Below, piece by piece: positions 1 through 3,317 of a stretch of DNA of 37,300 bases. The position numbers were made by a program, and so were the translations under genes. Origin of the DNA: a virus (Duplodnaviria; Heunggongvirae; Uroviricota; Caudoviricetes); IMG/VR virus record IMGVR_UViG_2925908680_000006; one strand, written 5' to 3'. The notes beneath the pieces were generated by a model. The model was given only the letters and a program-made list of their open reading frames with translations, was not told where the DNA came from and did not search any database. The first letter of the stretch is position 1. Each line of letters begins with the position of its first letter.

Positions 1-807
1 TTATGTAGCCGAAATGGTTGTGGTAATAGTCCCCCGAAGCCGCTGCGCTGCTACCTCAAAATAATGATCACTGGTTTCTATACCAATAAATTTTCGCCCT
101 GCTTTCAGTGCAGCCACACCCGTTGTCCCTGACCCCATAAAAGGATCAAGGACTGTTCCGCCACTATTCACAGTCCTGACCAGTTCCGCCATTAGTTCTT
201 CTGGTTTTCCGGTCGGGTGCATTTTCTTTGACGGGATAACCGGGTACGTCATGCAGCCGTCGAACGGCCCCGAAGGCGATTTATCTAAATGACCTTTGCT
301 GCCCCAGACGATGTATTCGCACTGATGCCTGAAATACCCCGTATGGGGTGTTCGTGACCCCCTCCCTTTGTTCCACGCAATGATGCCGCGCCATGTAAAG
401 CCGCTGGCCTGAAACGCATCGGTTAAAGCTGGTAGTTGTCGCCAGTCAGTAAATACCAAGGCATAACCGCCCGGCCTGACTGCGCGGTGTGCCTGTGCCA
501 TCCATAATTGTGTCCAGTAAGCCCACGAACGGGCGTCCATGTTTTCACCCGCGAACCCATCAAAGCGGTGAAGGTTCTCGCCGTTCAGATATTTTGCATG
601 GCTGCCCTGGTTGGTGCGTCCGGCCTTGTGTGTCGCACCCGAACTGTAAGGCGGGTCAGTGATTAAGGCATCAATGCTTTCTGGCTCAATCAGCGGCAAT
701 ATTTCCAGCGCATTCCCACGACAGAGCGTGGCATTGTCAGTCTGATAAACCTTAGTGTGTTCCGGTGTATGTGCTGGTTGGTGCTGGATTGCGATCCCCA
801 CGGTCAT
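1..807 (-). CDS. DNA amino-methyltransferase (N6-adenine or N4-cytosine), beta-class motif order
   Basis: 268 aa; DPPY catalytic motif near the N-terminus followed much later by FMGSGTTGVAA AdoMet-binding motif; ATG at 807. Confidence 0.85.
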   Translation of the reverse strand: MTVGIAIQHQPAHTPEHTKVYQTDNATLCRGNALEILPLIEPESIDALITDPPYSSGATHKAGRTNQGSHAKYLNGENLHRFDGFAGENMDARSWAYWTQLWMAQAHRAVRPGGYALVFTDWRQLPALTDAFQASGFTWRGIIAWNKGRGSRTPHTGYFRHQCEYIVWGSKGHLDKSPSGPFDGCMTYPVIPSKKMHPTGKPEELMAELVRTVNSGGTVLDPFMGSGTTGVAALKAGRKFIGIETSDHYFEVAAQRLRGTITTTISAT

Positions 808-949
808 AACTCCTCATGTGTGTGGGGTGCTCGATGGCTCTCGTTATCTGGTTAAGTATTTTGCAGCGCGGACATTTTATTTCAATGTAGTGAAATGAGG
901 CGCGGGCAAGTAGTTTGTTGCAATTTTTGCATCGTACATTTTGCGTCAT
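752..949 (-). CDS. com: Com-like zinc-finger protein (Mu Com family translational regulator)
   Basis: 65 aa from ATG at 949 with GAGGTG SD; RCKNCNKLL...HYIEIKCPRCK matches remembered Mu Com; 3' end overlaps the methyltransferase start by 56 nt. Confidence 0.7.
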   Translation of the reverse strand: MTQNVRCKNCNKLLARASFHYIEIKCPRCKILNQITRAIEHPTHMRSYDRGDRNPAPTSTYTGTH

Positions 950-991
950 TTGCGGCACCTCTTGTGTGGTTACTGCTGCCGATATGATAAC

Positions 992-1031
992 AAATCGATC
1001 GCTTTTATCGATCGGATTTATTGCATCGATC
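992..1031 (-). promoter_or_regulatory. Cluster of three GATC sites in imperfect palindromes, in the upstream region of com-methyltransferase
   Basis: GATC at 997-1000, 1010-1013 and 1028-1031, each inside ATCGATC; 50-80 bp upstream of the com ATG. Confidence 0.4.
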
Positions 1032-1077
1032 TGTTATGCCTATTACTTATGAATGGTGTTACCCTCATTTATGAGGG

Positions 1078-1114
1078 CAACAAAAAGAAAACCCGCAGTT
1101 TTTACGCTGCGGGT
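1078..1114 (-). terminator. Rho-independent terminator downstream of the TM2-domain gene
   Basis: acccgcag / ctgcgggt 8-bp stem (1091-1114) followed on the minus strand by a T-rich tract. Confidence 0.55.
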
Positions 1115-1141
1115 TTGTCATTCTGATTCGCCCACTAGGCA

Positions 1142-1438
1142 TTAGCCATATTTGCGGGCAAAGTCTTCATCAGAGGTGCATAGATAGATAAAAAACTCAA
1201 TAAATGCCACGATTGCCGGAATGAATGTCCAGCAAAAAATAAGGTAAAGGAATCCTTGCCCCACTTTACCTAAATAAAATTTGTGTGCACCAAGACCACC
1301 TAAAAAGAAAGCCAGTAGTGCGGCTGTCATTCTGCTTTTTGAACTTGCTGTTCTTTGAGGTGCTCCACAATTGGGGCAGGATGTGGCATCTTTATGTATT
1401 TCCTTGCCGCATCCGCGACAAAATACCATTTCACTCAT
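1142..1438 (-). CDS. Zinc-ribbon plus TM2-domain membrane protein, function unknown
   Basis: 98 aa; N-terminal CRGCGK...CPNCG zinc ribbon, then two hydrophobic helices with a GG.GAHKFYLGK motif. Confidence 0.6.
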   Translation of the reverse strand: MSEMVFCRGCGKEIHKDATSCPNCGAPQRTASSKSRMTAALLAFFLGGLGAHKFYLGKVGQGFLYLIFCWTFIPAIVAFIEFFIYLCTSDEDFARKYG

Positions 1439-1904
1439 AAAGAGTTCCTTTCAAATTTAAATAAGCGTTAAGCCCCCACTCTTACTGGTGGGCCTCAATT
1501 TAAATTTGGGTGCCACTTCGACCATACCCTGGCAACCGATTGACGGGGGATTGCTCCCCCGTCGCGGTTTCCTTACTGCTTACACTGTAAGAACGCCGCA
1601 AACTCCGCTCCCCAAAAGCTCATCCGTATTTCACACAGCGAACCGTGCAGCATCCAGATGATGAGGATTACCGTCACGCAGAACGTAATGGCCGTAAGCG
1701 ATTTTTGCGACATAGCGCTTGCTCCTTTGTTGGAGAGGCGCTAACCTATCACTTGCTTAAGGTAGATATGTTAGGGCCTCGGTTAAACAGAAATGTTTTC
1801 CGGGGCCTTTCCACATCTGGCCTTCGGGTATTCCCTCCGACCATCAGCCGAAAGGCACCCGCGCGTAATCTATCGCTTTTTTGTTACTCCGGCAATTCTG
1901 CCTG

Positions 1905-2165
1905 TTAATTCTGAGATAAAGGCAAACTCATCTGATTGTTTCCTCTGTGTGAAGCTGGCAGCTCATGCCACGGGATACCTTCTGAAGAGTGAACGCCGGA
2001 GGCGTGTTTTGATGTGAATTTATGGAAAGCTTCCAGTGTTGAGAAGCATACGCCGCATTCCAGGTTGTTACACTGGTAATACTTTTGCCGCACGGTGTTT
2101 GAATCATTTTCCGGACGACTGGTGCGGATACGGGCAGATGCGCCACAAAGCGGACAACGGAACAT
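1905..2165 (-). CDS. ogr: Ogr-type zinc-finger late gene activator
   Basis: MFRCPLCGASARIRTSR...YYQCNNLECG matches the remembered P2 Ogr N-terminus and Cys pattern. Confidence 0.85.
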   Translation of the reverse strand: MFRCPLCGASARIRTSRPENDSNTVRQKYYQCNNLECGVCFSTLEAFHKFTSKHASGVHSSEGIPWHELPASHRGNNQMSLPLSQN

Positions 2166-2207
2166 AGCGACCTCCCTTAACGTGGTGCTGCCGCTATTCT
2201 AAGTTGC

Positions 2208-3317
2208 TCACTCTGTTTCTGCTATCCATTCCGGGATTTTTGCTTCAAGCTCAAGCTGCGTGGTAAAGCCACTGTTATCAATAGAGTGCTCCGCTTTTGC
2301 AATAATCCAGTCCTGATTATCAATCTCGCTTTTAAATCCTGTTACCGTGCCATGCATTTCGGGGTAGAGTTCTGCACGTCCACGCGCCAGCGTGATGGAA
2401 AATGATGCGGCTCCGCGTTGTAGTTGCTGCCACTTTGCCGCCGCTGCGCGTCTTGCTGCCTGCTCGTTCTGATAAGTCTTGCGTAACACAAACACATTGC
2501 CTTCCGCGCCTTCCATATAATCACCTTCACGGCTGCTGCTTTTCTCCTTTTTGGGTTTTGGCGGTTTACGGCGTTTCACGCTGACTTTTTTCTTTTTCCC
2601 GTAATTAAGATCAAGCCAGTAGGCGCGTACCCCCGTATACGCCTCGCGGTCAGCAATGCGGAACTGATGGCGATCGCCGCTGCTGCGTGTAATGGCGAAC
2701 GAGGGCAACGGCTGGCCCTGTGCGTTCACGCCACCACCTGGCATGATGAATAACAGATTGCCGCTTTTTACCGTGGTGATTGCGCCCAGCATTTCCGCCA
2801 TGCGCGTAAGGAAGGACATGTCGCTTTCTTCGGTCTGGTCGGCGTGGTCGATTTCGATATCCATCAGCATTTCGCTGATTTGCGGTTTCAGACCATACCG
2901 ATGAGCGATGGCGGATACCACACGCTCAACGGTCACATCATGCCAGGACACCTCACGTTTAACGTTAAATTCATCCCGAAAATCTGCGCTTCTGGCTGAA
3001 ACAGTCAGCCTGTCCGGCGGTCCTTCGTGAGCGATTTCATCAACAATGTAAGTGCCTTTTTCTGTCAGCGGTTCTCCCTTCCAGCCAATGAGAACCGTCA
3101 GGCGCGCGCCCCGTGGCGGTAGCTGCAACTGACCATCCGCATCATCCAGCGTGATGGTGAGCTGGTCCGCCTCAAATCCCCGGTTGTCGGTCAGTGACAG
3201 GCTCATCAGGCGCTCTGCCACGCCTGACAGCGTTTTACCCTCCGCGAGAATATCAAAATCCGGCATTTTCACGGGGTCTGTGCCCTGACTGAGCAATTGC
3301 ATGGTGGTGTCGGTCAT
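2208..3317 (-). CDS. D: Tail protein D (late control D family)
   Basis: 369 aa from ATG at 3317 preceded by GGGAGGG SD; LTDNRGFEADQL, SARSADFR, SWHD, GFTT motifs match remembered P2 gpD; the ORF-track N-terminal extension is ignored. Confidence 0.85.
   Translation of the reverse strand: MTDTTMQLLSQGTDPVKMPDFDILAEGKTLSGVAERLMSLSLTDNRGFEADQLTITLDDADGQLQLPPRGARLTVLIGWKGEPLTEKGTYIVDEIAHEGPPDRLTVSARSADFRDEFNVKREVSWHDVTVERVVSAIAHRYGLKPQISEMLMDIEIDHADQTEESDMSFLTRMAEMLGAITTVKSGNLLFIMPGGGVNAQGQPLPSFAITRSSGDRHQFRIADREAYTGVRAYWLDLNYGKKKKVSVKRRKPPKPKKEKSSSREGDYMEGAEGNVFVLRKTYQNEQAARRAAAAKWQQLQRGAASFSITLARGRAELYPEMHGTVTGFKSEIDNQDWIIAKAEHSIDNSGFTTQLELEAKIPEWIAETE

Follow-up and report, generated by a model that had tools for sequence, protein, structure and literature searches.

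A com-methyltransferase operon of a P2-like Escherichia coli prophage with predicted Mu com-mom-type control

What decides when a prophage makes a DNA methyltransferase that is encoded behind com, in the place that mom takes in phage Mu? The question is raised by IMGVR_UViG_2925908680_000006, a 37,300-nt record of Caudoviricetes DNA (the window, taken at its full length), which is a P2-like Escherichia coli prophage of the P88/Xuanwuvirus type: At its outer end, beside raiA, lies an operon of com and a methyltransferase gene. A sequence-only reading had taken these genes for a methylation-gated, Com-controlled DNA modification module. On sequence evidence we support this overall view, with corrections to the methyltransferase start codon, to the mode of action of Com, which would work in trans, and to the position of the OxyR-type site. 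We put a probability of roughly 0.7 on the interpretation that the two-gene operon places a DNA-modifying enzyme under a transcriptional and a translational lock, in the manner of Mu com-mom. The window is one more combination of a known cassette: The pairing of com with a methyltransferase has already been published, both genes are annotated, and the module is very common. The genes are the following:

949..752, minus strand: com, encoding a 65-amino-acid Cys4 zinc-ribbon protein, predicted translational activator; ATG start, used by the Prokaryotic Genome Annotation Pipeline (PGAP).
963..958, minus strand: Shine-Dalgarno sequence AAGAGG of com, 8 nt before ATG 949, read from the sequence.
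801..1, minus strand: orphan beta-class DNA methyltransferase gene, 266 amino acids from GUG 801; stop codon 3..1.

The small open reading frame (ORF) had been assigned to the zinc-finger proteins of the Mu Com type, and this assignment holds: The product scores 40.5 bits against Pfam PF10122 (cut-off 22.9, E 1.9e-10), is 60% identical to Mu Com over 42 amino acids, and its cysteines C7, C10, C26 and C29 (CxxC...CxxC) are invariant in an alignment with Mu Com and seven relatives. Failure in zinc-finger or Com homology tests had been named as a possible refutation; the ORF passes both. An alternative com ORF, 958..752 on the minus strand, starts with GTG. A sequence search for a solved Com structure returned none, just weak matches to the eS27 zinc ribbon, and no NCBIfam equivalog was found for Com or for the methyltransferase. 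PGAP names the two products 'Com family DNA-binding transcriptional regulator' and 'DNA-methyltransferase'; the words 'DNA-binding transcriptional regulator' do not agree with what has been shown for Com, which binds RNA and acts on translation.

The second gene encodes, as had been proposed, an orphan amino-methyltransferase of the beta class. Its product matches PF01555 with an E of 2.3e-33, and its motifs stand in the beta order (IV before I, FxGxG), with DPPY at about residue 50 and FMGSGTTG at about residue 220. No endonuclease gene adjoins it, so the term 'orphan' is justified. The nearest solved structures are 5hek, deposited as adenine-specific DNA methyltransferase DpnA, and CcrM; M.MboIIA is also among the relatives. 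Because of the DPPY motif, the target is probably N6-adenine. We rejected identity with M.EcoGI or M.EcoGII, whose carrier phages are lambdoid: These enzymes share the beta class, the prophage location and the orphan status with that of the window but comprise 349 rather than 266 amino acids. The paper describing them is silent on com; it reports non-specific adenine methyltransferases encoded by prophages, silent in E. coli lysogens and harmful when expressed, with a close homologue in E. coli phage 1720a-02 (PMC5778455). A non-specific N6-methyladenine enzyme of the Hia5/Hin1523 type was rejected as well: BLASTP against the 281-amino-acid Haemophilus influenzae protein encoded beside com, which we take to represent that type, gave short permuted motif matches only (E 0.005), and we regard the two as non-homologous. 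Known pairings of com with non-specific N6-adenine methyltransferases in Mu-like prophages comprise those of Hia5, Hin1523 and Nma1821 as well as ORF47/48 of B3, and a Com homologue lies directly upstream of a methyltransferase in mom's place in FluMu, Pnm1, H. aegyptius and B3 (Drozdz et al. 2012, PMC3299994).

Collections of viral sequences and of genomes yielded 160 related com loci. At 47 representative Com loci, the downstream gene encodes a DNA-modification enzyme in 40 cases (D12 methyltransferase 28, PF01555 5, C5 methyltransferase 4, Mom 3). In Methylophaga thiooxydans DMS010, com with a D12 methyltransferase gene occurs in at least 12 near-identical copies (L094, L100, L102-L108, L110-L112), several of them exactly 446 nt from contig ends, a sign of either a Mu-like element present at many sites or repeats at which the assembly breaks.

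How could such an enzyme be kept in check? The elements that bear on this question are listed along the direction of transcription:

1034..998, no strand assigned: predicted OxyR-type binding site ACAGATCGATGCAAT-N7-ATCGATAAAAGCGAT, a consensus match in a register homologous to that of Mu.
997-1000, 1010-1013 and 1028-1031, no strand assigned: three Dam sites GATC, spaced 18 and 13 bp along transcription.
1011..984, minus strand: predicted sigma-70 promoter, with -35 TCGATA at 1011..1006, a 16-nt spacer, TG at 992..991 and -10 TATCAT at 989..984.
842..826, minus strand: predicted Com-binding RNA hairpin GAGAGCC-AUC-GAGCACC, an exact match to GAGNNCC(N)2-3GAGNNCC.
827..796, minus strand: translation-inhibiting hairpin, outer stem C827-C822 with G801-G796 (CCCCAC/GUGGGG).

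In the mechanism that we propose, the first lock would act on transcription: At unmethylated GATCs OxyR would bind and block RNA polymerase, and at Dam-methylated GATCs OxyR would be excluded, leaving the extended -10 promoter (TGtTATCAT, 992..984) free. The second lock, suggested by homology, would act on translation: The hairpin at 827..796 would shut in the Shine-Dalgarno sequence and GUG 801 of the methyltransferase gene until Com, made from the same mRNA, binds the hairpin at 842..826, opens the inhibitory stem and lets ribosomes start. Binding would open the stem because the last two bases of the Com hairpin belong to it, and since Com must bind for the stem to open, the methyltransferase would be made only after Com accumulates. 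The most likely role of the enzyme would be to shield the DNA of the phage from restriction, like Mom in Mu.

The candidate first lock centres on the GATC triple. The three sites lie 48-82 nt upstream of the com ATG, each inside ATCGATC, of which the 37.3 kb hold no further copy; the earlier description of three GATCs within 35 bp upstream of com is thereby confirmed. So is their likeness to the Mu mom promoter region: The 18/13 spacing is identical, 30 of 46 positions agree without a gap across the GATC region, and the match to the OxyR consensus ATAGnTnnnAnCTAT-N7-ATAGnTnnnAnCTAT reaches 15/20, as compared with 13 in Mu and 14 in agn43. A second register, 1043..1007, scores equally. The promoter was predicted by a consensus scan (9/12 matches plus TG), and its TGnTATCAT is kept in relatives including Yersinia. 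GATC2 falls into the predicted -35, GATC3 into the spacer, 7 nt from the predicted extended -10, and GATC1 near -53; the OxyR-type site is thus predicted to lie over the -35 and the spacer of a self-sufficient extended -10 promoter.

Here the window departs from its model. In Mu, the C-activator site lies between the third GATC and the -10. We take TAAGAT to be the -10 of Mu mom, which would fit the T-stretch spacer described for that promoter; the third GATC of Mu is then 40 nt upstream of the -10, instead of 7 nt. A T-stretch spacer has been described for the Mu mom promoter (PMC4461284). The dependence of the weak promoter in the Mu control region on a C/Mor-type activator between OxyR site and -10 finds no counterpart in the window, where no C-type site is evident between the GATCs and the -10 and there is no room for one. 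An Ogr-type TGT-N12-ACA site is likewise missing near com, the only three in the window lying elsewhere. As regards Mor/C-family genes, the sole match was in an unrelated Salmonella locus, the window itself not having been scanned for such genes. With no room for an activator site and no Ogr-type site, OxyR would act by occlusion, like at agn43 and at the gtr site proximal to the promoter, and because the OxyR/GATC site overlaps the predicted promoter, the behaviour of the lysogen may differ from that of Mu.

This predicted overlap brings up the strongest alternative, in which the same elements would mediate heritable ON/OFF switching in lysogens as in agn43 and gtr, making the methyltransferase phase-variable and not purely lytic. 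We consider this possible, at well below even odds. Besides the placement of GATC2 and GATC3 within the predicted promoter and the lack of Ogr-type and C-type sites, the parallels with both surface-antigen systems speak for it: in agn43 of E. coli the GATCs are embedded in OxyR half-sites of the ATCGATCG type, a context shared with the window, in a 19/13 instead of an 18/13 arrangement, and in gtr of Salmonella and P22 a pair of GATCs 13 bp apart occupies one OxyR half-site, Dam methylation abolishes OxyR binding, the OxyR site overlaps the promoter and represses, and the operon phase-varies (PMC2909390). Unlike the window, agn43 and gtr control surface-antigen genes and have neither Com nor an RNA layer. 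Against the alternative stand the predicted nature of our promoter and the fact that, for Mu mom itself, phase variation is not known (PMC2909390). Moreover, control by Com hints at an enzyme that growing cells should keep switched off. We think it unlikely that the lysogen operon works as a full epigenetic switch, in which OxyR and Dam would compete for heritable ON and OFF states and a subpopulation would make the prophage adenine methyltransferase. If it did, E. coli would possess a phage-borne phase-variable methylome. Were adenines in GATC or ATCGAT also among the targets of the enzyme, it would bar OxyR from its own promoter, a positive feedback that would lock the ON state; Com would then be a threshold filter against leaky expression.

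We return to the two-lock interpretation and its translational half. Selection of RNA ligands (systematic evolution of ligands by exponential enrichment, SELEX) with a Com protein by Nowacka et al. gave NGAGNNCC(N)2-3GAGNNCCNN, a motif that sits in a hairpin adjoining the structure that inhibits mom translation. RNA hairpins with this motif are bound in vitro by the Com proteins of Mu and H. sputorum (PMC6483171). When both strands of the whole window are considered, GAGNNCC(N)2-3GAGNNCC has a single match, at 842..826, where it abuts the hairpin over the methyltransferase start codon. The element is widespread: In the form GA-N4-C-N2-4-GA-N4'-C it is present in 106 of 110 distinct com loci (10.7 in shuffles), 5-70 nt and mostly 11-40 nt after the CPRCK codons, and in 64 loci the first N4 block can pair with the second along its whole length. 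As background, 597 kb of flanking DNA contain 11 fully paired cases (0.0023 per 125 nt). When 70 distinct instances are aligned, 94.3% of the cells of the 4-bp stem are paired, 83 cells carry changes on both stem sides, and none of 500 shuffles reached the observed covariation score. Rfam gave no match at 752..1040 and has no family for the Com RNA element; its matches in 1..2500 were sok and, both outside 752..1040 and taken as chance, weak hits to MicC (1075..1199) and BSnc120 (1042..1137). Many Acinetobacter, Moraxella and other loci have not one Com hairpin motif but two in tandem, about 22 nt apart (L098, L099, L101, L118-L121, L126, L127, L132, L135, L136, L139, L140, L143-L145, L147, L153, L154, L158, L160, L164).

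The adjoining hairpin, 827..796, has a minimum-free-energy fold of -17.5 kcal/mol (z -2.67) and encloses the Shine-Dalgarno sequence GAGGAG (815..810) together with ATG 807..805, while GUG 801..799 is fully paired in the stem. Which of the two codons starts the methyltransferase? In every enterobacterial relative, whichever the downstream gene, that gene begins at the GUG of GUGGGG; relative L038 has no AUG at all. GAGGAG is 8 nt from GUG 801 and 2 nt from AUG 807. Because of this conservation and the better Shine-Dalgarno spacing, GUG 801 is the most likely start, and the annotated ATG 807, which would yield 268 amino acids, is probably 6 nt too far upstream; the 266- and 268-amino-acid forms both occur in databases. 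The overlap with com that the sequence-only reading had pointed out therefore exists, its size of 56 nt applying to ATG 807 and shrinking to 50 nt from the conserved GUG.

The same organization is found in Mu com-mom: An inhibitory hairpin (CCCAC...GUGGG), whose stem contains the GUG start of mom, follows immediately on the Com-binding hairpin (PMC6483171). The two systems further agree in the Com zinc ribbon, in a downstream gene that starts 50 nt before the com stop, in the GATC spacing and in the location of the operon at one end of the phage genome. They differ in that the window has a PF01555 methyltransferase instead of Mom (PF25680) and in that its phage is P2-like and not transposable. 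Among the relatives, the Com cassette is joined to Mom, to a C5 methyltransferase or to a beta methyltransferase a few codons past the shared GUG, and GTGGGGAAC is common to the three kinds of downstream gene (L038, L039, L051, L068 and L069 at ~1640..1660; window 790..801), a sign that recombination may have joined the parts just within the downstream gene.

Does Com then act as a protein in trans, or do ribosomes that translate com simply unfold the hairpin? Ordinary translational coupling without a trans role of Com would agree with a com ORF that crosses the whole hairpin and ends 50 nt past the GUG; we regard it as improbable. In the H. influenzae locus L133, Com hairpin motifs are likewise present, and the start codon is covered by a hairpin of wholly different sequence (GCCAUAG/CUAUGGC) and the same topology. 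In Haemophilus, com encodes 39 amino acids, is separated from the downstream gene by a 56-nt spacer instead of overlapping it, and has no GATC cluster. There, as at other loci, com stops before the motifs and the hairpin, both of which lie in the intergenic spacer, so that coupling cannot explain their conservation and Com action in trans is favoured over ribosome coupling. The covariation of the motif as a structure and the binding of Com to it in vitro (PMC6483171) point the same way. Of the proposal that the gene arrangement is that of Com-dependent translational activation, the geometry is thus retained, with the motif and the start-hiding hairpin in place, and 'translationally coupled' is replaced by a predicted activation in trans through Com binding.

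Several observations weigh against the two-lock interpretation. In the window, the Com hairpin has one A.A mismatch, so that three of the four stem pairs form. The promoter is a consensus match, and its region held no more such matches than shuffles did. If self-sufficient, a promoter with Dam-methylated sites would leave the operon on in lysogens, which fits poorly with tight control of a harmful enzyme. A 62%-identical homologue in the lysis cassette of a Salmonella Mu-like prophage has no com. The GATC triple as such can be a product of chance: With 87 randomly placed sites, P is ~0.18 for the window as a whole and 1.8e-3 for a single given stretch of 100 nt, and a comparable triple arose in 385 of 1000 dinucleotide shuffles.

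We accordingly do not treat the bare GATC count as significant and argue instead from the setting of the sites and from their conservation. None of 1000 dinucleotide shuffles produced three copies of ATCGATC within 40 bp, and the best OxyR score among 621 other 60-nt tiles of the window is 13. Counted within 125 nt upstream of com, the 18/13 triple is present in 33 of 38 close relatives, a group that extends to Salmonella and Yersinia kristensenii; by genus, the cluster is kept in relatives from Escherichia, Salmonella and Yersinia. P2-like relatives with Mom or a C5 methyltransferase have the 13-bp GATC pair in 38 of 38 cases, 35 of them with the pair alone, whereas 54 of 68 com loci outside enterobacteria have no GATC; the cluster was found only in hosts with Dam and OxyR. 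GATC is rarer in the whole window than expected, with 87 sites against 135 +/- 11 in dinucleotide-preserving shuffles. A general linkage of com to the methyltransferase family of the window was rejected, as homologues without com exist: A 41%-identical one in a Burkholderia P2-like phage also lacks it. A 72%-identical one in Yersinia does come with hok, com and the same control region.

These data also bear on the view that the GATC cluster has no regulatory role, being what past recombination with a Mu-like element left behind or a DNA/RNA hairpin (CGATCGATAAAAGCGATCG) unrelated to OxyR and Dam. An inverted repeat at 1014..996 was indeed flagged in a terminator scan, the bare count of the triple is not significant, and three relatives (L035-L037) have lost the GATC block yet keep both genes. 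The exact spacing in the close relatives and Yersinia, an OxyR score above every other tile and the confinement of the cluster to hosts with Dam and OxyR make this view very unlikely. In L035-L037 (~1440..1500), an apparent 31-bp deletion runs between the first and third GATCGAT and the remaining site is mutated, while TGtTATCAT, com and the methyltransferase gene are kept; these should be natural variants blind to OxyR and Dam. That Com is a DNA-binding transcription factor which activates the promoter and not translation, for which the PGAP product name alone speaks, has a next to negligible probability, given that Mu and H. sputorum Com bind RNA hairpins with exactly this motif (PMC6483171) and that a motif inside the transcript with compensatory base changes has the properties of an RNA structure and not of a DNA operator.

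On the two-lock interpretation, the whole control package of Mu mom, comprising Com, its RNA hairpin, the start-hiding hairpin and the Dam/OxyR-sensitive GATC site, is a portable cassette, which in P2-like prophages of enterobacteria is combined with other DNA-modifying enzymes. The beta-class methyltransferase of the window type is carried by many E. coli, Salmonella and Klebsiella genomes. The predicted locks would explain why prophage methyltransferases of this sort may leave no motif in methylome surveys, and they offer a defined way to switch such an enzyme on, namely by supplying Com or by opening the hairpin. Two annotations are corrected, the methyltransferase start codon and the Com product name. 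The current understanding of such modules is unchanged; mildly novel would be phase-variable methylation in lysogens, as a possible consequence of an OxyR site over the promoter. In the literature we found no specific description of a P2-like com-methyltransferase module or of undermethylated GATCs there.

The module is common in E. coli. It is present in more than 100 complete genomes, and each of the two proteins is recorded on at least ~1000 contigs. The first 2.2 kb of the window are 99.5% identical to chromosomal DNA adjoining raiA in many E. coli genomes (125 genomes with at least 80% of this 2.2 kb covered) and 96% identical to phage Chuche, whose record carries the label 'gpCom control of modification'. 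Upstream of com the gene order is as follows:

2165..1905, minus strand: ogr.
1713..1573, minus strand: hok/gef toxin ORF (PF01848), between ogr and the TM2 gene.
1438..1142, minus strand: TM2/zinc-ribbon gene; its product, a small membrane protein, combines a TM2 domain with a zinc ribbon at the N-terminus.
1116..1089, minus strand: strong intrinsic terminator of the upstream TM2 gene, with a 10-bp stem containing 6 G-C pairs, then a T run.

At hok/gef (region 1573..1860), the match to a sok-like antisense RNA (RF01794) scores 47.9 bits, below the gathering score of 59, with an E of 5e-9. The TM2 gene is missing from the otherwise co-linear phage Chuche and looks like an inserted accessory gene. 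Its predicted terminator, separated from com by 140 nt, would shield the com operon from read-through. Between this terminator and the OxyR-like site lies a perfect palindrome, CCCTCA-taaa-TGAGGG (window 1061..1078); L035-L037 hold a hairpin-forming element, CCCTCAcaaaTGAGGG, that resembles it. Finally, a contig labelled Vagococcus sp., a Firmicute (L086), carries the enterobacterial com-methyltransferase module at 91% identity, which is probably contamination or else a recent transfer.

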